DNA from: Minisyncoccota bacterium
Lineage (GTDB): Bacteria > Patescibacteriota > Minisyncoccia > Phycocordibacterales > JAQTLZ01
DNA: 64,000 nucleotides
Direction of reading: 5' to 3'
Assembly (NCBI GenBank): GCA_028714635.1
Contig: JAQTLZ010000002.1
Span: 121,841-185,840, forward strand
Below are positions 30,049 to 46,482 of the stretch, piece by piece; positions within the stretch are counted from its first letter, which is position 1, and every line of letters begins with the position of its first letter. The translations under genes were made by a program, and so were the position numbers. The notes under the pieces were generated by a model that saw only the letters and a list, made by a program, of their open reading frames with translations, did no database searches and was not told the origin of the DNA.

Positions 30049-30723
30049 ATGAACAAACTCGGACGACTTATCATAATCGAAGGGCTTGATGGGGCAGGGA
30101 AAGCTGTTCAGACTAAGCTTCTTACCGAAGCTCTGCAAAAAGCTGGTAAAGAAGTGACGCTTTTTGATTTTCCTCGCTACACCACTTCGATGTTTGGAAA
30201 GTTGACCGGCGAAGCGCTTCAGGGCATGTACGGGGATTTCCGGAATATGTCCCCATTTCTTTCTTCGCTTCCGTTCGTGCTTGACCGAGCGACTGCAAAA
30301 AATGATATTGAGAAAGCGCTCGAGAAAGGAGATGTTATTTGCAATCGCTATACGCCTTCGAATCTCGCCTATCAATCTGCGAAACTCCCACCATCGCAGA
30401 GGAAAAAATTTGTAGACTTTTTAGAGAAAGCGGAATACGGGGAAATTGGAATTCCCAAGCCGGATGTTGTTTTCTATCTCTCCGTTCCCGTTGAGACCGC
30501 ACTTGGGCTCAATGCTCAAAAGCCAAAACGGGTGTATTTGAAAAAAGCTGGAGATAAAGACCAGCATGAAGACGACGAAATGTATCAAAAACAAGTAATT
30601 GAAGTTTATATGTCTTTCGCAAAAGAGAAAAAGAACTGGCATATCGTAGAATGTCTGAAGGGAGGCAAGCTTCTTTCACCGGAAGAAATTCATCTGAAAA
30701 TAATGGCAACACTCGCAAATTAA
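30049..30723 (+). CDS. tmk: thymidylate kinase
   Basis: 224 aa. P-loop IIIEGLDGAGKAV. TGCTAGTAT -10 box ends 7 nt before the ATG. Confidence 0.85.
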   Translation: MNKLGRLIIIEGLDGAGKAVQTKLLTEALQKAGKEVTLFDFPRYTTSMFGKLTGEALQGMYGDFRNMSPFLSSLPFVLDRATAKNDIEKALEKGDVICNRYTPSNLAYQSAKLPPSQRKKFVDFLEKAEYGEIGIPKPDVVFYLSVPVETALGLNAQKPKRVYLKKAGDKDQHEDDEMYQKQVIEVYMSFAKEKKNWHIVECLKGGKLLSPEEIHLKIMATLAN

Positions 30724-30738
30724 AGGTATCATCTAGCA

Positions 30739-31329
30739 ATGTCAGACCAAAATCTTCGATTCTTATTTGAAATAGCGACGCTCCGAAATCTCGACCGCTC
30801 ATGGAGGCAGTATATCGGTATGGATGTTGAAAGTGTTCTAGAACATATTGTTCGTGTGATGTTTCTCGCGCTTCTTATCGCCCGTAAAGAAGGGGTGAAG
30901 AATGAAGAGAAAATTATGAAAATGGTGCTTGTTCACGATCTTGCGGAAACGAGAACGAGCGATCATATGTATGTTCATAAGGTATATGTGAAAGCGGACG
31001 AGAAAAAGGCCGCCGACCATCTCTTTTTCGGAACGCTTTTTGGAGATTTGCGAAAAGATATCCTTCATGAGTATGAAGAGCGGAAATCTATTGAGGCGAA
31101 AATTGTAAAAGATGCCGATAATCTTGAATGCGATATGGAACTCAAAGAATTGGAAGCGAGGGGGTCTACAGTGCGAAAGAAACTCGCTTCTGGGAGGAGA
31201 CTGGTGCGAGACAAGAAACTCTACACCAAAACCGCACGGAAGCTTTGGGATGCGATTCAAAAAGCAGATGTGGATGAGTGGCATCTTACGAGTAATAAGT
31301 GGCTTAAGATTCCGAATGCTGGGAAATAA
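30739..31329 (+). CDS. HD-domain phosphohydrolase (YfbR-like 5'-deoxynucleotidase type)
   Basis: 196 aa. H..(V)HDLAETRTSD HD motif. Confidence 0.7.
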   Translation: MSDQNLRFLFEIATLRNLDRSWRQYIGMDVESVLEHIVRVMFLALLIARKEGVKNEEKIMKMVLVHDLAETRTSDHMYVHKVYVKADEKKAADHLFFGTLFGDLRKDILHEYEERKSIEAKIVKDADNLECDMELKELEARGSTVRKKLASGRRLVRDKKLYTKTARKLWDAIQKADVDEWHLTSNKWLKIPNAGK

Positions 31330-31332
31330 ACA

Positions 31333-33036
31333 ATGAAAGAGAAATTAGAAATTTCGGTAAAGAAAGCTCTGAAAACACTTTCTATTGAAGCGGAAAGTGT
31401 TTCTTTCGAGCACCCAACAGAAATTTCTCACGGGGATTATTCGACGAATATTGCTCTTGCACTTTCGAAACATTCAAAAGAAAATCCTCGGGTTTTGGCG
31501 GAAAAAATTGTGGGGGAAATTAATAAAAAACTTCCCAAAGAGATTCACAAAGTTGAAGTTGCCGGGGCGGGATTTATTAATTTTTTTCTTTCGAAGGAAT
31601 TTTTTGTAGAGCAAACGGCCGAAATTTTGGCGGAAGGCCAAAATTTCGGCCGAAACAGCTCTCTTAAAAAAGAAAAAGTAGTTATTGAATACACAAACCC
31701 AAATCCTTTCAAGCAATTTCATATCGGTCATTTGATGAATAATGCTATAGGCGAATCACTCTCGAGAATCGTCGATGCAAGCGGAGCTAAACTCACTCGC
31801 GTGAATTATCAGGGAGATGTTGGGCTTCATGTGGCGAAAGCTCTTTATGGAATGATGCACTCTTCACGCCCCCTTCCCAAAGAAGAATCACTCGAAAAGC
31901 AGATCGCATATCTTGGTGAATCCTATGTCGCAGGCGCGACTGCATATGAAGAAAATGAGGAAGCAAAAAAAGAAATTCAGGAAATAAATAAAAAAGTTTT
32001 TGAAAAAAGTGATAAGGAAATAAATAAGCTCTATGAATGGGGGAGAAAAATCAGTCTTGAAGATTTTGAGCGTCTGTATCAGAAACTCGGGACAAAGTTT
32101 GAGCATTATTTTTTTGAAAGCGAAGCTGGGGCGATAGGAAAGAAAATTGTGCTTGAATATCTTGAAAAAGGCGTTTTTGAGAAAAGTGATGGAGCTATTA
32201 TCTTTCCTGGTGAGAAACATGCCCTGCATACACGCGTTTTCATTAATTCACAAGGCTTGCCGACATATGAGGCAAAAGAGCTCGGAGTTTCGCAGATGAA
32301 ATATGACATGTATCGTTACGATCTTTCCTTGGTGGTTGCGGGAAACGAGATCAATGATTATTTCAAGGTACTTACAAGAGTGATCGCAATTTTGTACCCA
32401 GAACTTGCAGACAAAATAAAACATATACCAAATGGAATGCTTCGCCTTGCCAGCGGGAAAATGTCCTCTCGAAAGGGAAATGTGATATTAGGGAATGATT
32501 TGATTTCCGATGTCGAGAAATTAGTGGAAGAAAAAATGAAAGACCGCGAACTTCCAGCTGGTCAGAAAAAAGAAATTGTAGAAAAAGTGGCGATCGGCGC
32601 TATCAAGTATTCGATTCTTCGCCAATCACCCGGCAAAGATATTATTTTTGATCTTGATAAATCACTTTCATTCGAAGGAGATTCGGGACCATATCTGCAA
32701 TACACAGCAGTCCGCGCAAATTCTGTGCTAGAAAAAGCGAAAGAGATGAAAATCAAATCGAGCGCTAAAGATGGAGAAGGAGAAGTGAATCTTGTTGAAA
32801 AAATGTTGTATCGTTTTCCCGAAATTGTCGAGCTTTCTCTTAAAGAATACGCTCCACAATACATTGCGACATATCTCATCGAACTTGCGGGAGCTTTCAA
32901 TTCATATTATGGAAATACAAAAATTATCAATACCGATCCGGGTGTGTCATACAGACTTTCCCTTACGGAAGCTGTAAAAATAGTTCTCGCCAACGGCCTT
33001 AACCTTCTAGGCATACAAGTGCCTGAAAAAATGTAA
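31333..33036 (+). CDS. argS: arginine--tRNA ligase
   Basis: 567 aa. NPNPFKQFHIGH (HIGH) and MSSRKG (KMSK-like). C-terminal anticodon-binding domain ends in M. Confidence 0.95.
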   Translation: MKEKLEISVKKALKTLSIEAESVSFEHPTEISHGDYSTNIALALSKHSKENPRVLAEKIVGEINKKLPKEIHKVEVAGAGFINFFLSKEFFVEQTAEILAEGQNFGRNSSLKKEKVVIEYTNPNPFKQFHIGHLMNNAIGESLSRIVDASGAKLTRVNYQGDVGLHVAKALYGMMHSSRPLPKEESLEKQIAYLGESYVAGATAYEENEEAKKEIQEINKKVFEKSDKEINKLYEWGRKISLEDFERLYQKLGTKFEHYFFESEAGAIGKKIVLEYLEKGVFEKSDGAIIFPGEKHALHTRVFINSQGLPTYEAKELGVSQMKYDMYRYDLSLVVAGNEINDYFKVLTRVIAILYPELADKIKHIPNGMLRLASGKMSSRKGNVILGNDLISDVEKLVEEKMKDRELPAGQKKEIVEKVAIGAIKYSILRQSPGKDIIFDLDKSLSFEGDSGPYLQYTAVRANSVLEKAKEMKIKSSAKDGEGEVNLVEKMLYRFPEIVELSLKEYAPQYIATYLIELAGAFNSYYGNTKIINTDPGVSYRLSLTEAVKIVLANGLNLLGIQVPEKM

Positions 33037-33045
33037 TATACATAT

Positions 33046-33378
33046 ATGACTGAAGCAATTCCAGGACAAAATAGTGGGAATCCAAGATCGGCGGATAGAC
33101 AGGAGAAAATTAACGAGATGATTTTGGCACGCAATGGGGTGTTAGGATTAGTGAAAACTCCAAAGCAGAGAGAGATTGTTCGAGAAGAGAATCAGCAATT
33201 TATTATTCAACTCAGGAAAAACAACCCAGGGCGCGACACCCTTGCAAAATATCAAGCATGGCAGATTTTCTCAAGTGGCACAGATATCCAGGATGAGAAA
33301 GCTCCGGAGCTTGATTTCCCGGGAGAAGATTCTCTTATTGAATTTTATAAAAGACTTGAAGAAAAGTTGAAATCATGA
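33046..33378 (+). CDS. hypothetical protein
   Basis: 110 aa. TAATAT at 33034-33039 lies 6 nt before the ATG. ATGA overlap with maf. Confidence 0.55.
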   Translation: MTEAIPGQNSGNPRSADRQEKINEMILARNGVLGLVKTPKQREIVREENQQFIIQLRKNNPGRDTLAKYQAWQIFSSGTDIQDEKAPELDFPGEDSLIEFYKRLEEKLKS

Positions 33379-33953
33379 GAAAAATAATTCTCGCATCAGG
33401 TTCTCCGCGCCGGAAAGAAATTTTAGGAAGGCTCGGCATTCCTTTTGAGGTCGTGCAAAGCGATTTCCAGGAGTTTATTGATCCCAAAATATCTCCGGGT
33501 GCGTTAGCAGAAAAGCTCGCGATCGGAAAAGCAAAAGCGGTCGCTTTCAAATACCCCGACGCAATTATTATCGGAGCGGATACTGTCGTAGCGCTTCATG
33601 GCGAAGCGATGGGGAAACCCAAGACGCCAGAGGAGGCTGTGGCTATGCTCACGCGCCTTTCGGGAGAAACCCATTCGGTATTTACAGGCTTTACCATCAT
33701 GAGTACAAAGACAGGGAGATCAATCACTGACGTTTGTGAATCAAAAGTTACTTTCAAACAGCTTGATCCCGCTAGTATTGAAAAATATGTTATAAGCGGA
33801 GAACCATTAGAGATGGCTGGAGGCTACGCGATACAGAGTGGAGCGAAAGATTTCGTGGAAAAATACGAAGGAGATTACAATAACATTGTCGGACTTCCTC
33901 TTACTCTCGTGCGGAACGCTCTCAAGATGTTTGATGTCAGTGTGTCCTCATAA
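33375..33953 (+). CDS. maf: Maf-like nucleoside triphosphate pyrophosphatase
   Basis: 192 aa. ILASGSPRRKEIL, GADTVV and GGYAIQ motifs. Confidence 0.9.
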   Translation: MRKIILASGSPRRKEILGRLGIPFEVVQSDFQEFIDPKISPGALAEKLAIGKAKAVAFKYPDAIIIGADTVVALHGEAMGKPKTPEEAVAMLTRLSGETHSVFTGFTIMSTKTGRSITDVCESKVTFKQLDPASIEKYVISGEPLEMAGGYAIQSGAKDFVEKYEGDYNNIVGLPLTLVRNALKMFDVSVSS

Positions 33954-34000: not shown

Positions 34001-34450
34001 ATGGAAGGAGATTACGAAAGAGAAGATGTGGAGAAATCGCTCCAGCCGGAGACGCCTCATTACCCTGCACGACCTCATTACTATGGCGATATTGTAAGGC
34101 AGGCACTTTTTGCTATCGGCATCATTATGATCATCGGCATGCCGATTTTTTCAGACAAAATCAGTTTCAGCGGTTTCTTCATCATTTTGGGAATTCTTGG
34201 CGTAAATCTTTTTGCCGGACTTACCAATCCCAAGCAGGCTGTGAGCATCTGGGGTGATTTCATCATCTCTTTTCTCGGTCTTGTTTTCTTTGAGCTCATC
34301 GCTTTTTTTTACTACGCGGCATATCACAGCGTTCTCGATCTCTATTTCTGGTTTAACCAGGTCATCAGCATTCTTTTCTTCGTTTCTCTATATTTTAGTG
34401 TCAAAACGCTCCGCGGAATGCTCACCGGCTCAATTGAGGAGGATAACTAG
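34001..34450 (+). CDS. small polytopic membrane protein, hypothetical
   Basis: 149 aa with four hydrophobic helices. Confidence 0.6.
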   Translation: MEGDYEREDVEKSLQPETPHYPARPHYYGDIVRQALFAIGIIMIIGMPIFSDKISFSGFFIILGILGVNLFAGLTNPKQAVSIWGDFIISFLGLVFFELIAFFYYAAYHSVLDLYFWFNQVISILFFVSLYFSVKTLRGMLTGSIEEDN

Positions 34451-34513: not shown

Positions 34514-37500
34514 ATGTCCGAGAAAGAAACAGACAAAAAAGTGAAAAGCCCTTTAGCTCTCCGTGAAGAGGAGATTCTTCGATTTTGGCAGGAAAAGAAA
34601 ATTTTTGAGAAGACAGAAGAGGCAGGCAGAGGGCAGAAGGAATTTGTTTTCTATGAGGGACCGCCGACCGCGAATGGTCGGCCGGGAATCCATCATCTCG
34701 AAGCTCGGGCATTTAAAGACATCATTCCTCGCTATAAAACGATGCGAGGATATCACGTGCGCAGAAAAGGCGGCTGGGATACGCATGGGCTTCCGGTTGA
34801 GCTTGAAGTTGAGAAAAAACTCGGTCTCAAATCAAAAAAAGAGATCGAACAGTACGGCATCGCTAGATTTAACGCGGAGTGCAAAGAAAGTGTTTGGAAA
34901 TACGTGGACGAATGGAAACAATTTACCGAGCGAATGGGGTATTGGATCGATCTGAAAAATCCCTACATCACTTACGAGCCTTCGTATATGGAATCGCTTT
35001 GGAATGTGATGAAGACGGTGGATGAGAAAAAACTTCTCTACAAAGATTATCGAATTGTACCGTGGTGTCCGCGTTGTGGAACTGCGCTGTCGAGTCATGA
35101 ACTTGCCCAAGGCTATGCAGAAGTAAAAGATATTTCGGTTTACGCGAAATTTGAGCTCGTCGATGAGCCGGGTACATTTGTGTTGGCGTGGACGACGACA
35201 CCTTGGACATTGCCGGGGAATGTTGCTCTCGCAGTTGGGCCGAAAATCAAATATGTGAAAGTAAAGATTGGGAATGAGTTCTTTATTTTGGCGAAAGAGA
35301 GGCTTTCAATTCTGAAAGACAAAGCGCACGAAATGGTGGAGGAGTTTGATGCCGGAAAGATTATCGGGAAATCCTACAAACCGCTTTTCAATGCTTTTTC
35401 TGACCCAAAAATCCTAAACAAAGAAAATGCGTGGAAAATTTATGGAGCGGATTTTGTCACAACAACTGACGGAACCGGAGTGGTGCATATCGCGCCCATG
35501 TATGGAGCAGACGATTTCGCACTTGCGACGAAAGTAAATTTGCCGAAATATCATACGGTTACTCCAGCAGGCGCTTTTAATGCAGATAAAAATCTTCCGG
35601 GAAACATTTCAGGCATTTCTATTTCTTCCGAAGAGGATCGTAAAAAAGGGAACATTGAGATCCTTAAATATCTTCAGGAAAAAAATCTCTATTTCGATAA
35701 AGAATCTCATGCGCATGAATATCCTTTTTGTTGGCGCTGTAAAACCCCGCTTATCTATTACGCCCGCGATTCCTGGTATATCAAAATGTCTTCTCTTCGC
35801 GACAAATTGGTAAAAGAAAATGAAAAGATAAATTGGGAGCCAGACTATATCAAAGAGGGACGTTTCGGAGAATGGCTTCGCGAAGTGAAAGATTGGGCGA
35901 TCTCCCGCGAGCGCTATTGGGGCACACCTTTGCCTGTGTGGGAGTGCCAAAAATGCAAAAAACGCGAAGTGATCGGCTCAATCGAGGCTCTCAAAGAAAA
36001 AACATCTCGAAAAAATAAATACTTTCTTGTCCGTCATGGGGAAGCGGAATCGAATTTGACTGGGAAGGTAAGCTGTCGGCCAGATGATCCTTACAAGCTT
36101 ACTGACAAGGGAAGGGAACAAGTCGAGACCACAGCTAAGGCCCTTAAAAAGAAAAAAATCGATGTCATTTTTGTTTCTGATTACATTCGGACAAAAGAGA
36201 CAGCAGAAATTATCCGAGAAGCTTTGAATATTTCTCCTGACAAAGTCATCATCGATGCCCGGCTTCGCGAAGATAATATCGGAGTGTACCAAGGCAAGAC
36301 CTGGAAAGAATATCAGGATGAATATCCGTATCTCGAGCGATTCGTAAAAACTCCAGAAGGCGGAGAGACGCTTGCGGAAGTAAGAAAAAGATCTGGAGAT
36401 TTTCTGTTTGATATTGATTCTCGCTTTGCCGGAAAAAATATTCTGATTGTAAGCCATGATACCCCGATGACTCTGATTCTGGCAGTGGCGCAAGGCTGGA
36501 CGAAGGAAAGAATTCTGCTCGGTCACGAGAGAAAAACTCCCGAACCTTTCTATTTTCTGCCAGCAGAGCTTCGAGAGATTTCTTTTTCTCCCTATCCTCA
36601 CAATGATGACTATGAACTCGATCTTCACCGCCCGTTTATCGATGAAATAAAATTTCCTTGCGACTGTGGCCTGCCCCCTGGCCGGGCAGGCGGCCAGGGC
36701 GGAGAGATGAAACGAGTGAATGAAGTAATGGATGTCTGGTTTGATTCAGGCGCAATGCCGTTCGCCGAGGACCACTATCCATTCGAGAATAAAAAGTGGG
36801 TGGAGAAAGAAGGATTTCCGGCAGACTATATTTCTGAAGCGATTGATCAGACTCGCGGATGGTTTTATACGCTTCATGCTGTGGGAGTGCTTATGGGTTT
36901 CGGCAAGGCGTATAAAAATGTTATTTGTCTCGGGCATATTTTGGATAAGGACGGACAAAAAATGTCCAAATCAAAAGGTAACACGGTAAATCCGTGGGAG
37001 ATGATGGACAAGTATGGCGCTGATCCCCTTCGCTTTTGGATGTATGGCGTCAATCAGCCGGGCGAATCAAAAAACTTCGACGAGAAAACAGTTGATGAGG
37101 GAGTGAAAAAAGTATTCAATTTGCTTTTGAACGTTCTTTCTTTTTACGAGATGAATTCTCCCCAAGAGTTCGAAGTAAGCAAGCCGGGCGCAAGCGAGAA
37201 TGTCTTGGATAGATGGATCGAAGCGAAATTTGCCGAGCTCCTCGCTACAGTAGAAACCGGACTCGATGCGTATCGAGTATTTGAGCCTGCCCGCGCAATT
37301 CGCGATTTTATGGCTGACCTTTCGCAGTGGTATTTGAGGCGTTCTCGTGATCGATTTAAAAGTGATGACGTCTTAGATAGGACGAATGCAGTCCAAACAA
37401 CGCGCACGGTCCTTCTTCAATTGGCGAAACTTATGGCTCCGTTCACTCCGTTTGTTGCGGAAGATGTCTATCGAAGACTCAGGGGCGAGAAGGAGAGTGT

Positions 37501-37984
37501 GCATATGGAAAGCTGGCCAAAGAGAGAAAAAATAGATTCCAAACTTCTGAAAGAAATGGAAGCGGTGAGAAATCTTGTGTCACTCGGGCTCGAAGCTCGC
37601 TCGAAAGCGCTTATCAAGGTCCGCCAGCCGCTCGCGAAGATAACAGTGAAGGCCGAGAAAATGTCTCCAGAACTCGTCGGACTTATGAAAGATGAATTGA
37701 ATGTGAAGGAAGTGATGTTTGATGCGAAACTTTCTTCGAATGTTCTTCTCGATATTGTCATAACTCCTGCGTTAAAAGAAGAAGGAGAATATCGAGAACT
37801 TCTGCGAGTTATCCAAGATTTTAGAAAAGAAAAGAAGCTTCAAGCGAGCGACAAAATTTCGCTTTTTCTGACTGCACCGAAAGAGATCCTGGCAATTGTA
37901 AAAAAATTTGAAACTGAAATAAAAAAGGTTTGCAATGTTACCGGCTTTGAAACGAGGGAAGGCGAGTTTGAGCTTAAGCTGTAA
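34514..37984 (+). CDS. ileS: isoleucine--tRNA ligase with an inserted histidine-phosphatase (PGAM-type) domain
   Basis: 1156 aa. PPTANGRPGIHH (HIGH), KMSKSKGN, and WCPRCGT / CWRCKT zinc knuckles. Insert LVRHGEAESN...LIVSHDTPM at about 36017-36616. A 10-aa GC-rich insert lies at 36671-36700. Confidence 0.9.
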   Translation: MSEKETDKKVKSPLALREEEILRFWQEKKIFEKTEEAGRGQKEFVFYEGPPTANGRPGIHHLEARAFKDIIPRYKTMRGYHVRRKGGWDTHGLPVELEVEKKLGLKSKKEIEQYGIARFNAECKESVWKYVDEWKQFTERMGYWIDLKNPYITYEPSYMESLWNVMKTVDEKKLLYKDYRIVPWCPRCGTALSSHELAQGYAEVKDISVYAKFELVDEPGTFVLAWTTTPWTLPGNVALAVGPKIKYVKVKIGNEFFILAKERLSILKDKAHEMVEEFDAGKIIGKSYKPLFNAFSDPKILNKENAWKIYGADFVTTTDGTGVVHIAPMYGADDFALATKVNLPKYHTVTPAGAFNADKNLPGNISGISISSEEDRKKGNIEILKYLQEKNLYFDKESHAHEYPFCWRCKTPLIYYARDSWYIKMSSLRDKLVKENEKINWEPDYIKEGRFGEWLREVKDWAISRERYWGTPLPVWECQKCKKREVIGSIEALKEKTSRKNKYFLVRHGEAESNLTGKVSCRPDDPYKLTDKGREQVETTAKALKKKKIDVIFVSDYIRTKETAEIIREALNISPDKVIIDARLREDNIGVYQGKTWKEYQDEYPYLERFVKTPEGGETLAEVRKRSGDFLFDIDSRFAGKNILIVSHDTPMTLILAVAQGWTKERILLGHERKTPEPFYFLPAELREISFSPYPHNDDYELDLHRPFIDEIKFPCDCGLPPGRAGGQGGEMKRVNEVMDVWFDSGAMPFAEDHYPFENKKWVEKEGFPADYISEAIDQTRGWFYTLHAVGVLMGFGKAYKNVICLGHILDKDGQKMSKSKGNTVNPWEMMDKYGADPLRFWMYGVNQPGESKNFDEKTVDEGVKKVFNLLLNVLSFYEMNSPQEFEVSKPGASENVLDRWIEAKFAELLATVETGLDAYRVFEPARAIRDFMADLSQWYLRRSRDRFKSDDVLDRTNAVQTTRTVLLQLAKLMAPFTPFVAEDVYRRLRGEKESVHMESWPKREKIDSKLLKEMEAVRNLVSLGLEARSKALIKVRQPLAKITVKAEKMSPELVGLMKDELNVKEVMFDAKLSSNVLLDIVITPALKEEGEYRELLRVIQDFRKEKKLQASDKISLFLTAPKEILAIVKKFETEIKKVCNVTGFETREGEFELKL

Positions 37985-37991
37985 GTCTCTC

Positions 37992-38585
37992 ATGCATCAT
38001 ATCTACCAAACAGAAGGGTTTGTTATCGGCGGGACGAATGCCGGCGAGGCAAATCGATATCTCAAAATTTTCACACTTGATTTCGGCATGATCTCTGGTT
38101 CTGCTCAAGGAATCAGACATTTAAAATCAAAACTTCGCTACAGCCTCCAGGATTTTTCCTACAGTTCAGTTTCTTTGGTGAAAGGGAAAGATGTTTGGAG
38201 AGTGGTGAACGCAGAAAAAAAGGAAAATCTCTGGGAACTTTTTCGCAAAGAAAAAAGGAAACTTGAAATTTTCGCCCGCTCTCTTTCGCTTCTCAAAAGA
38301 TTTTTACACGGAGAAGAGAAAAATGAGGCATTGTTTCGTCTTTTTTCTTCCAGCTGTTTCTACCTTGCGAAATCAGAGACTCTTTCTCCAGAGGACCTGC
38401 GTAATTTCGAGTATGTTTTAGTGCTTCGAATTTTGCATAATCTCGGCTATCTCAAAAAACTTCCCATACTTTCGCCTTTTTCGGAGACGGACGCGTGGAA
38501 TCAAGACATTCTTCGAGAAATGGAAGGACACAAAGCGCTTGCACTCGCCGAGATAAATCGCTCATTTACAGAAAGTCACCTCTAG
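37992..38585 (+). CDS. recO: DNA repair protein RecO
   Basis: ATG at 37992 (MHHIYQTEGFVIG...). OB-fold N-terminus typical of RecO. Confidence 0.75.
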   Translation: MHHIYQTEGFVIGGTNAGEANRYLKIFTLDFGMISGSAQGIRHLKSKLRYSLQDFSYSSVSLVKGKDVWRVVNAEKKENLWELFRKEKRKLEIFARSLSLLKRFLHGEEKNEALFRLFSSSCFYLAKSETLSPEDLRNFEYVLVLRILHNLGYLKKLPILSPFSETDAWNQDILREMEGHKALALAEINRSFTESHL

Positions 38586-44977: not shown

Positions 44978-45030
44978 ACCTTGAGTGTTTTGTAATCAAA
45001 AAGCGAAAGGTGTACAGCTCCTGTAAGGAG
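44978..45030 (+). ncRNA. copy C of the GUACWG/UGUAA motif, upstream of metG
   Basis: P-a ACCTT(44978-44982)/AAGGT(45007-45011) enclosing hairpin TTTTG-TAAT-CAAAA. GTACAG 45012-45017. CTCC-TGTAA-GGAG 45018-45030. Confidence 0.55.
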
Positions 45031-45051
45031 GAATATCAAAGACATAATTTC

Positions 45052-46482
45052 ATGGCAGAAAAGAAATCCTTTTATATCACGACGACTCTTCCGTACGTGA
45101 ATTCTGATCCACATATCGGTTTTGCCGCGGAAATTGTACACGCTGATATTCTGGCTCGCTACGCGCGTCTCATGGGCCAAAGCGTTTTCTTTAATACCGG
45201 TACGGATGAACATGGCATAAAAGTGTATCGAAAGGCCGAGGAAGAGGGAATTTCTACTCAAAAATATGTTGATGAAAAAGCAACGCATTTTGAAAGCCTA
45301 AAACTTTCTCTCAACTTGAGTTTCAATAGTTTTATTCGCACTACGGACGCGAAGCATAAAAAAGCGGCGGGAAGCTTTTGGGAGGCCTGTGCTGCTTCCG
45401 GCGACATCTACAAAAAAGCCTACAAAATTAAATATTGCGTCGGCTGTGAACTTGAAAAGACAGAATCGGAACTTATAAACGGCAGATGCGCGATACACCC
45501 GAATTTAGAGCTCGAGATTATTGAAGAAGAAAATTATTTTTTTAGATTTTCAAAATATCAGAAAGTGCTTCTGGATTTGTATGAAAAAAATCCAGAATTT
45601 GTTGTTCCGGCAACGCGTCTACACGAGATAAAAGCATTTGTTGAAAGGGGACTTGAAGATTTTTCAATTTCCCGTTTAAAAAGCAAAATGCCGTGGGGAG
45701 TGGATGTTCCTGGAGATGAAGAGCATGTTATGTACGTTTGGTTTGATGCACTTGTGAATTATATTGATGTTATCGGCTGGCCAGAAAATGAAACCGAATT
45801 TGCAAAATGGTGGCCAGGAATTCAAATCGCTGGGAAAGACAACCTTCGTCAGCAATCGGCAATGTGGCAGGCGATGCTTCTCTCCGCGGGGCTTCAAAAT
45901 TCAAAACAAATAATCCTTCGCGGGCACATAATTAGCGGCGGGCAAAAAATGTCCAAGTCCCTAGGCAATGTCATAAGCCCTACTGATCTGGTAAAAGAAT
46001 ACGGCACGGATGCTGTGCGCTATTTCCTTGCTAGGGAAGTGAATCCGTTTGAAGATAGTGATGTAACGCTCGAGCGTATTAAAGAAGCCTATAACGCGAA
46101 TCTTGCGAATGGCTTGGGGAATCTCGTCGCTCGAATAATGAAAATGGCACAAACAAATTTAGAAAAGGCGCCGAAAATTCCAGAGGATCCAATCCCAGAA
46201 ATATTTAAAAAAGCCATTGAAAAATACGATATAAAAACCGCGGCGGACTACGTATGGAAAGAAATCGCGGTGCTTGATTCGATCATTCAAGAAGAAGAGC
46301 CGTTCAAGCTTATAAAAACGAACAAAGCAGAGGCGATAACCATTATTGAAGATCTCTGCGTCCGTCTCTACACAATCGGCAGAATGTTAAATTCAATATT
46401 GCCCGAAACGTCAGAAAAAATTAAATCCGCGGTGAAGGCAAACAAAATGCCCGAAGTTTCTCTTTTTCCGAGGAAGGAATAA
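45052..46482 (+). CDS. metG: methionine--tRNA ligase (short form)
   Basis: ATG at 45052 (MAEKKSFYITTTLPYVNSDPHIGF = HIGH region), and KMSKSLGN. The track start at 45010 reads through the RNA motif. Confidence 0.95.
   Translation: MAEKKSFYITTTLPYVNSDPHIGFAAEIVHADILARYARLMGQSVFFNTGTDEHGIKVYRKAEEEGISTQKYVDEKATHFESLKLSLNLSFNSFIRTTDAKHKKAAGSFWEACAASGDIYKKAYKIKYCVGCELEKTESELINGRCAIHPNLELEIIEEENYFFRFSKYQKVLLDLYEKNPEFVVPATRLHEIKAFVERGLEDFSISRLKSKMPWGVDVPGDEEHVMYVWFDALVNYIDVIGWPENETEFAKWWPGIQIAGKDNLRQQSAMWQAMLLSAGLQNSKQIILRGHIISGGQKMSKSLGNVISPTDLVKEYGTDAVRYFLAREVNPFEDSDVTLERIKEAYNANLANGLGNLVARIMKMAQTNLEKAPKIPEDPIPEIFKKAIEKYDIKTAADYVWKEIAVLDSIIQEEEPFKLIKTNKAEAITIIEDLCVRLYTIGRMLNSILPETSEKIKSAVKANKMPEVSLFPRKE

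Follow-up and report, generated by a model that had tools for sequence, protein, structure and literature searches.

A histidine-phosphatase domain nested in the CP3 loop of a Patescibacterial isoleucyl-tRNA synthetase, with a stand-alone counterpart encoded upstream of ileS in sister lineages

Bacterial aminoacyl-tRNA synthetases are usually thought to be limited to the domains needed for charging, editing and tRNA binding. The insertions of class Ia enzymes, such as the CP1 editing domain, the CP3 zinc knuckles, the leucine-specific domain of LeuRS and the ARD2 INS of isoleucyl-tRNA synthetase (IleRS), are nested in surface loops that leave the Rossmann fold undisturbed, and all of them serve aminoacylation, editing or tRNA binding. 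This report concerns the ileS gene found in a stretch of 64,000 nucleotides (nt) of a Minisyncoccota bacterium (assembly GCA_028714635.1, contig JAQTLZ010000002.1, positions 121,841 to 185,840 of the forward strand), hereafter called the window. Its product is likewise interrupted in a surface loop, but by an enzyme of an unrelated superfamily, a histidine phosphatase endowed with its own, apparently intact, active site. Both component families are well known, while the nested combination, and the conserved pairing of a stand-alone phosphatase gene (hp) with ileS in related genomes, are new and apparently undescribed.

A curated precedent for an IleRS with an additional enzymatic domain is the NCBIfam family NF040702 (ileS_w_GNAT). 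Its extra domain, however, belongs to another family, and the IleRS of the window scores 312.6 bits against the cut-off of 1999 bits and gives no acetyltransferase match; one fragmentary relative, P0354, possesses both His_Phos and GNAT domains. NCBIfam holds no dedicated model for a phosphatase-containing IleRS. The fusion of a CobC-like phosphatase to a nucleic-acid enzyme occurs in the RNase H/acid phosphatase family NF005567 (Rv2228c type), which is the best phosphatase-containing NCBIfam match of the insert (85.5 bits); in that case, however, the two enzymes are joined end to end, the partner is a different one, and the insert stays below the cut-off of 326 bits. Regarding the synthetase, the mupirocin hyper-resistant IleRS2 enzymes (PMC10485003) have the G/AXHH motif and the type-2 C-terminal domains also seen here, but all those described in that paper lack an enzyme domain in CP3. 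A 2026 preprint on the evolution of IleRS domains takes up the nested architecture of the synthetase; a phosphatase or Patescibacteria are mentioned neither there nor in PMC10485003. Literature searches, several of them aimed at this fusion, yielded no description of a phosphatase nested in IleRS or encoded directly before ileS and, as the initial annotation of this DNA had supposed, no aminoacyl-tRNA synthetase with an internal histidine phosphatase.

The host protein is 1156 amino acids (aa) long. Its assignment to IleRS, proposed in the initial annotation, holds: the ileS model TIGR00392 scores 879.6 bits against a cut-off of 621.4, in two stretches about 200 residues apart, and the Pfam domain tRNA-synt_1 flanks His_Phos_1 on both sides, followed by Anticodon_1 (aa 899-1041) and DUF5915 (aa 994-1138). 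A sequence search of the PDB placed the IleRS2 of P. megaterium (8c8w, 8c8v) and the T. thermophilus enzyme (1ile) closest, with E of about 1e-240, versus about 1e-95 for the IleRS1 structure 1ffy. The full-length AlphaFold model, with a predicted local distance difference test (pLDDT) of 90 and a predicted template-modelling score (pTM) of 0.83, also finds IleRS2 structures as its best Foldseek matches. Membership in the type-2 group is further indicated by the DUF5915 domain at the C-terminus, in place of the zinc-binding domain with which IleRS1 ends.

The signature elements of the synthetase were compared with those of its 120 best full-length homologues (55-60% identity, 1115-1215 aa), hereafter the orthologues. 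The class I HIGH signature takes the form GIHH, in which H61 is invariant and G58, I59 and H60 are at least 90% conserved; it aligns with the GVHH of the hyper-resistant mutant 8c8w. The G/AXHH motif is functional in IleRS2, where it confers mupirocin hyper-resistance, and it has been reported in IleRS2 only (Brkic et al. 2023, PMC10485003). Both editing motifs, WTTTPWT and GTGVVH, are present in the protein of the window, and WTTTPWT and GTG.VH are invariant in the alignment. Within the KMSKS loop, K816, M817 and K819 are invariant, while S818 and S820 are conserved at 90% or more. Judged from these features, the host appears to be a complete type-2 IleRS with no sign of a disabled synthetase, and it should charge tRNA-Ile normally.

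The initial annotation had placed an insert of about 200 aa at 36000-36620 and had remarked that the connection is short in typical IleRS sequences. Both points stand. The insert maps to aa 500-698 (nt 36011-36607) and its roughly 199 residues take the place of a loop of about 3-5 residues: in the alignment with 8c8w, aa 497 pairs with residue 478 and aa ~698 with residue ~483, so that these few residues span the connection. Relative to insert-less IleRSs of related genomes, the alignment stops at aa 497-500 and picks up at aa 699-705. In those genomes GSIEELKEKADKDYR continues directly into LTDLHRPGIDE, whereas in the protein of the window GSIEALKEKTSRKNK is separated by 199 aa from LDLHRPFIDE (aa 702-711).

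CP3 was assigned by the published domain borders of the C. albicans, S. cerevisiae and T. thermophilus enzymes (PMC7191050, PMC7955072). In T. thermophilus, CP3 carries a zinc motif, and CP3 is the most variable subdomain of IleRS, which tolerates different folds (PMC7191050). The segment PVWECQKCKK (aa 474-483) holds the first half of a zinc knuckle, and the second half lies beyond the insert; the phosphatase sits at the tip of CP3, between the two halves. Just upstream of the insert lies the CP2-CP3 linker, which in yeast IleRS forms part of the pocket for the CCA end and A76 (PMC7955072). The knuckle cysteines C478/C481 and C716/C718 occur in most orthologues and are replaced jointly in the remaining ones. 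It thus seems that CP3 has lost zinc binding more than once without losing the phosphatase insert. A glycine-rich loop, for the most part confined to this protein, follows the second half of the knuckle directly: 116-118 of the 120 orthologues have gaps at positions 719-726 and 728-729, while G727 falls in a conserved glycine column (112/120). A fragmentary relative, P0050, has a longer loop at this site.

The insert reads KYFLVRHGEAESN at aa 502-514 (nt 36017-36055) and LIVSHDTPM at aa 644-652 (nt 36443-36469), and these are the two motifs, with RHG in the first, that had led the initial annotation to propose a histidine phosphatase of the PGAM type. This identity was confirmed in three ways. 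First, Pfam PF00300 matches aa 504-666 with E = 7.9e-37 and 127.3 bits, against a gathering cut-off of 21.7. Second, the PDB sequence matches of the insert are PspA (4ij5, the best, 1.5e-14) and PhoE (1ebb, 1h2e). Third, the insert modelled alone by AlphaFold (pLDDT 95.7, pTM 0.92) retrieves with Foldseek the mycobacterial hydrolase 6s2q, PspA, Rv2419c, PhoE, TIGAR, a riboflavin-pathway phosphatase, CobC and dPGM, with probability 1.00 for PspA, PhoE, GpgP, CobC and dPGM; the top matches are all small histidine phosphatases.

Comparison with the small branch-1 phosphatases PhoE/YhfR (1h2e/1ebb), PspA (4ij5), glucosyl-3-phosphoglycerate phosphatase Rv2419c (4pz9), alpha-ribazole phosphatase CobC (6e4b) and the hydrolase 6s2q shows the same fold, the same size (about 190-210 aa) and the same catalytic set of RHG, second Arg, Glu and second His, with Foldseek E values of 1e-12 to 1e-14 and TM scores of 0.65-0.76, although the identity is only 22-31%. 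These enzymes are free-standing, unlike the Patescibacterial one, which is either nested in a synthetase or, in sister lineages, translationally coupled to one. By sequence and predicted fold, the insert is a complete member of branch 1 of the histidine-phosphatase superfamily, within the small group that resembles PhoE, PspA, CobC and GpgP. The features of the synthetase, of the nested domain and of the neighbouring genes are collected in Table 1.

Table 1. Position of the features discussed in the text, numbered from the first nucleotide of the window.
Feature	Position (nt)	Strand	Basis or remark
argS, conserved upstream neighbour	31333-33036	+	Pfam; synteny
ileS, type-2 IleRS with nested phosphatase, 1156 aa	34514-37984	+	single open reading frame, TIGR00392
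G58-I59-H60-H61, non-canonical GXHH form of the class I HIGH signature	34685-34696	+	reads PGIHHLEAR
CP1 editing domain, apparently intact (~aa 200-405)	35111-35728	+	matches editing-domain structures 1wk8, 1ue0 at aa 200-404
CP3 zinc knuckle, first half C478-x-x-C481	35945-35956	+	Cys in 104-105/120 orthologues
Antisense open reading frame, 216 aa, almost exactly over the phosphatase insert	35978-36628	-	no Pfam match; reads as non-coding
Nested histidine-phosphatase (His_Phos_1) domain, aa 500-698	36011-36607	+	Pfam PF00300; boundaries from alignment with insert-less IleRS
R507-H508-G509, RHG motif with predicted phospho-accepting His	36032-36040	+	orthologue conservation
R559, second phosphate-pocket Arg (predicted)	36188-36190	+	orthologue conservation
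E586, predicted general acid	36269-36271	+	orthologue conservation
H648, second catalytic His (SH/TH motif; predicted)	36455-36457	+	orthologue conservation
CP3 zinc knuckle, second half C716-x-C718	36659-36667	+	Cys in 104/120 orthologues
Gly-rich loop GLPPGRAGGQG (aa 719-729)	36668-36700	+	directly after second zinc-knuckle half; largely specific to this protein
KMSKS loop (K816-S820)	36959-36973	+	motif search
Anticodon-binding and type-2 C-terminal domains	37208-37927	+	Pfam Anticodon_1, DUF5915
recO-like gene, conserved downstream neighbour	37935-38585	+	Pfam RecO_N
Class II synthetase, tRNA-synt_2b/HGTP_anticodon	40572-41876		
MetRS-like class I synthetase	45010-46482		

The nested domain is not peculiar to this genome. 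PF00300 is present in all 120 orthologues and is inserted at the identical point. R507, H508, R559, E618 and H648 occur in 120/120, N514 in 119/120, and G509 and R626 in 118/120, while position 586 is Glu in 117 and Asp in three. Conservation of the catalytic residues had been named beforehand as a point on which the phosphatase proposal could fail, together with a lack of phosphatase-family similarity in profile searches; both catalytic His and the two Arg are invariant, and the Pfam match, far beyond chance, is well above its cut-off. When GTDB was scanned with a single genome for each species, at least 567 genomes with a relative were obtained, the best 80 of which were examined. In these the nested domain forms one stretch and the order IleRS-N, HP, IleRS-C holds in 80/80; upstream, argS is found in 58 of them, and downstream, recO in 63. 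Among the 81 domains aligned from them, R507, H508, R559 and H648 are found in 81/81 and position 586 is Glu in 79 and Asp in two.

The record titles of the nested-type genomes include Paceibacterota, Parcubacteria RAAC4_OD1_1, Nomura-, Taylor-, Jorgensen- and Vogelbacteria, and Minisyncoccia. The nested architecture is widespread in Paceibacteria/Parcubacteria (Patescibacteria), and the catalytic set R507/H508/N514/R559/E586/H648 is essentially invariant. When the insert alone was used for the search, 102 of the nearest 150 representatives of clusters at 50% identity had IleRS flanks. The insert is evidently ancient and not recent, because it is common to orthologues at 55-60% identity and because its composition is uniform with that of the gene (GC content 0.42-0.45, versus 0.39-0.49 elsewhere in ileS, i.e., no difference); the earlier statement that the composition argues against a recent foreign insertion is therefore upheld.

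Three apparent departures from this pattern were considered and rejected. About ten homologues of 890-966 aa, with the phosphatase at ~260-300, looked like IleRSs without an editing domain, and BLAST revealed N-terminally truncated gene calls that start at about residue 200-300 of the protein of the window. Split ileS genes were suggested by a query made of the insert and its short flanks, which gave only fragments of 525 aa or less; a full-length search showed that intact proteins of 1115-1215 aa are the rule. As for other synthetases, the long synthetase-flanked proteins among the nearest 150 representatives were all IleRSs with the exception of one ArgRS fusion, and no ValRS, LeuRS or MetRS was among them.

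The closest relatives that are not nested are stand-alone proteins of 185-205 aa, and ten of their loci were looked up. Nine of the ten genes lie directly upstream of an insert-less ileS (935-993 aa), between argS and ileS, and in four of these nine loci the hp stop codon and the ileS start codon overlap by 4-11 nt. The gene order at these loci is smpB, argS, hp, ileS, recO, a DUF11/CLIPPER protein, a class II synthetase and an M16 peptidase, collinear with the window; recO follows ileS in most of the loci that reach that far, while at L016 it is not annotated. The two genome types differ mainly in that the phosphatase is a gene of its own before ileS in one and a domain inside IleRS in the other. 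A rough neighbour-joining tree groups the nested and the stand-alone forms as one Patescibacterial family, versus cyanobacterial outgroups. The tenth stand-alone gene (P0057, locus L010) has as its neighbours a MazG-like pyrophosphohydrolase, an HD/YfbR-like 5'-nucleotidase and a ThsB-TIR protein, which may point to nucleotides as the substrate.

Several relatives depart from the single nested copy. Two tandem phosphatase domains occupy the CP3 site in P0261, P0374, P0364 and P0381, and at least three, probably four, do so in P0250; in P0284 an additional copy follows the KMSKS region and precedes the anticodon-binding domain. Fusions to other proteins occur as well: in P0370 (689 aa) the phosphatase is fused at the C-terminus of ArgRS, and its domain groups with the stand-alone genes in the tree, while P0366 (387 aa) joins a Sua5/YciO/YrdC protein to the phosphatase. 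The two partners, ArgRS and Sua5, are both tRNA-related and adenylate-forming. The IleRS fragment P0354 has an IS200-like Y1 transposase at 340-461, His_Phos_1 at 680-854 and GNAT at 935-1063, and it may be either a gene that was invaded several times or a product of faulty assembly.

The two forms differ also in charge. Stand-alone proteins have a median isoelectric point (pI) of 9.8; over their length of about 195 aa those of loci L002, L006, L007 and L013-L016, except L016, bear a net charge of +15 to +33 (pI about 10). Per residue they exceed the ArgRS, IleRS and RecO encoded next to them in basicity at every locus except one; the form at L016 has a pI of 6.5 and is not basic. Nested domains are roughly neutral, with a median pI of 6.1, and slightly acidic even in hosts with less than 36% GC. 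Such a contrast would fit a free protein that binds a polyanion such as RNA and a tethered form that does not need to do so. The charge difference is partly a lineage effect, since proteins are basic in general where the gene stands alone.

The explanation that best accounts for the whole, to which we assign a probability of about 0.5, is a bifunctional protein: one polypeptide contains a complete type-2 IleRS and, in CP3, a whole histidine-phosphatase domain of ~190 residues with an intact active site. By analogy with its superfamily, the latter is predicted to hydrolyze phosphomonoesters via a phospho-His508 intermediate, with R507, R559 and H648 holding the phosphate and E586 acting as the acid. 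The nested domain would be the relocated form of the gene that, in sister Patescibacteria, follows argS and precedes ileS, to which it is coupled in translation. The roles that the initial annotation had listed as possible (hydrolysis of a nucleotide or alarmone, healing of tRNA ends, a sensor) are speculative. For its role we tentatively favour, with somewhat less than even confidence, a small-molecule phosphatase acting independently, which would be produced 1:1 with IleRS and stay at its side without chemical channeling. This role is ranked first because all the solved relatives are small-molecule enzymes and because copy number and fusion partner vary.

A number of observations weigh against this explanation or parts of it. 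The copy number is 1, 2 or 4 among relatives and a second insertion site exists, which makes it less likely that the domain and the IleRS active site are coupled with geometric precision. The tree settles neither the direction nor the number of the nesting events. The adjacency of hp and ileS lies inside a long syntenic block that also holds the unrelated genes smpB, recO and the M16 peptidase, so adjacency alone is weak evidence of functional coupling. The insert stays below the cut-offs of the curated NCBIfam equivalogs for CobC (TIGR03162, 82.6 versus 162.9 bits) and PspA (71.3 versus 350) and of the mutases dPGM_arch (79 versus 225) and GpmB (57.9 versus 261), and the stand-alone forms do not reach the cut-off of any characterised equivalog either (dPGM_arch, 82-102 versus 225 bits); substrate specificity is thus not transferable by homology. 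Lastly, the strong positive charge of the stand-alone forms suits a polyanionic, RNA-like partner better than a small-molecule role.

This last point leads to the strongest competing proposal, which we consider unlikely although clearly the best of the alternatives: the domain would free the 2'/3' end of the tRNA bound to IleRS from a terminal phosphate, or from a pyrophosphate that a toxin has attached, and so heal the acceptor end before charging, while the stand-alone form would find the RNA by itself. It is ranked second because of the charge contrast and because the fusion partners found, IleRS, ArgRS and Sua5/TsaC, are all tRNA enzymes. The exceptionally basic stand-alone homologues are what it predicts, and the neutrality of the nested domains even in low-GC hosts is expected if IleRS now provides the affinity for RNA; the contribution of the CP2-CP3 linker to the CCA/A76 pocket of yeast IleRS (PMC7955072) also speaks for it. 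On the other hand, the nearest solved relatives are all small-molecule enzymes, there is no evident reason why tRNA-Ile alone should need healing, and the charge argument is reduced by the form at L016 and by the lineage effect. Moreover, we know of no member of the histidine-phosphatase superfamily that acts on RNA ends.

A broader proposal, rather improbable in our view, regards the phosphatase as a partner reserved for IleRS, by which charging could continue during an attack. An inhibitory phosphate would be taken off either the KMSKS loop of the synthetase, after the action of HipA/HipT-type kinase toxins, or the 3' end of the tRNA, after that of CCA-(pyro)phosphorylating toxins, and the basic, translationally coupled stand-alone form would be the ancestral free partner. 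If this were true, it would be the first example of a synthetase that has its own enzyme for repair or immunity built in.

Much less probable than the independent small-molecule phosphatase favoured here is a role in central metabolism. The domain might be the cell's dPGM or another core metabolic phosphatase, e.g., phosphoserine phosphatase, fused to IleRS by an accident of genome compaction. In line with this, the best NCBIfam match of the stand-alone forms is the short archaeal-type dPGM (90-102 bits; 79 for the nested form), neighbouring genes are often fused in reduced genomes, and the variable copy number and fusion partners fit a passenger domain. However, the dPGM, GpmB, PspA and CobC equivalog cut-offs are all missed by a factor of 2 or more. 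Mutases of 250 aa, such as E. coli GpmA, possess a longer segment with extra substrate-binding residues, which a domain of ~190 aa would, judging from its length, lack. A metabolite sensor, or a true phosphoglycerate mutase, is likewise among the less likely options.

Quite improbable, too, and ranked next after the RNA-end phosphatase, is the proposal that the domain dephosphorylates IleRS itself, for instance at a serine of the KMSKS loop, a target of HipA/HipT-type toxin kinases in other class I synthetases. HipA phosphorylates S239 in the KLSKR motif of GltX, and HipT phosphorylates S197 in the KMSKS motif of TrpS (PMC6581861). The protein of the window keeps KMSKS with its conserved S818, the best PDB sequence match of the insert is a phosphoserine phosphatase, and the GNAT domain after the phosphatase in P0354 suggests that other modifying domains have been recruited at the CP3 site. 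SixA, PGAM5 and Sts-1 are protein phosphatases within the superfamily. PspA, however, acts on free phosphoserine and its NCBIfam score is far below the cut-off, and the PADLOC-DB defence profiles match neither the insert nor the stand-alone protein P0079.

The weakest proposal, a non-catalytic structural or regulatory module or else an artefact (a chimeric assembly, an element like an intein, or a gene encoded by the other strand), could draw on the tolerance of CP3 for different folds (PMC7191050) and on the antisense open reading frame of 216 aa that spans the insert, but it is refuted for practical purposes by the invariance of the catalytic residues across deep divergence, to which are added the recurrence of the architecture in hundreds of independent assemblies, the continuous reading frame, of which the insert is a conserved part in all orthologues, the absence of any intein/Hint or homing-endonuclease match by Pfam on the full protein at E <= 0.01, and the lack of a family match for the antisense frame.

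Whatever its substrate, an enzyme of an unrelated superfamily, its active site intact, accompanies IleRS in either of two forms, nested in a loop or, in sister lineages, encoded directly upstream, and its retention across deep divergence points to a partner activity of IleRS of which no description was found. Given the number of genomes with a relative, the nested form may be present in hundreds more than the best 80. The domain offers a testable handle on Patescibacteria, which are not culturable alone and whose physiology is poorly known, and CP3 can be seen as a place where a class I synthetase accepts grafted domains. There are consequences for annotation as well: proteins of this architecture are common among public metagenome sequences, where automated annotation describes them only as "class I tRNA ligase family protein", and in metabolic reconstructions that count PGAM-family members the insert of IleRS could be taken for a mutase of glycolysis.

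Elsewhere in the neighbourhood, upstream of ileS (30049-33953), are found a thymidylate kinase, an HD_3/YfbR-like hydrolase, argS, an unannotated open reading frame of 110 aa and a Maf nucleotide pyrophosphatase. Downstream, the window encodes the class II synthetase and the MetRS-like enzyme listed in Table 1, and with argS and ileS they make this a region rich in genes for aminoacyl-tRNA synthetases. Between maf and ileS, a reading frame of 149 aa (34001-34450) matches no family and, by the look of its sequence, encodes a putative membrane-spanning protein.

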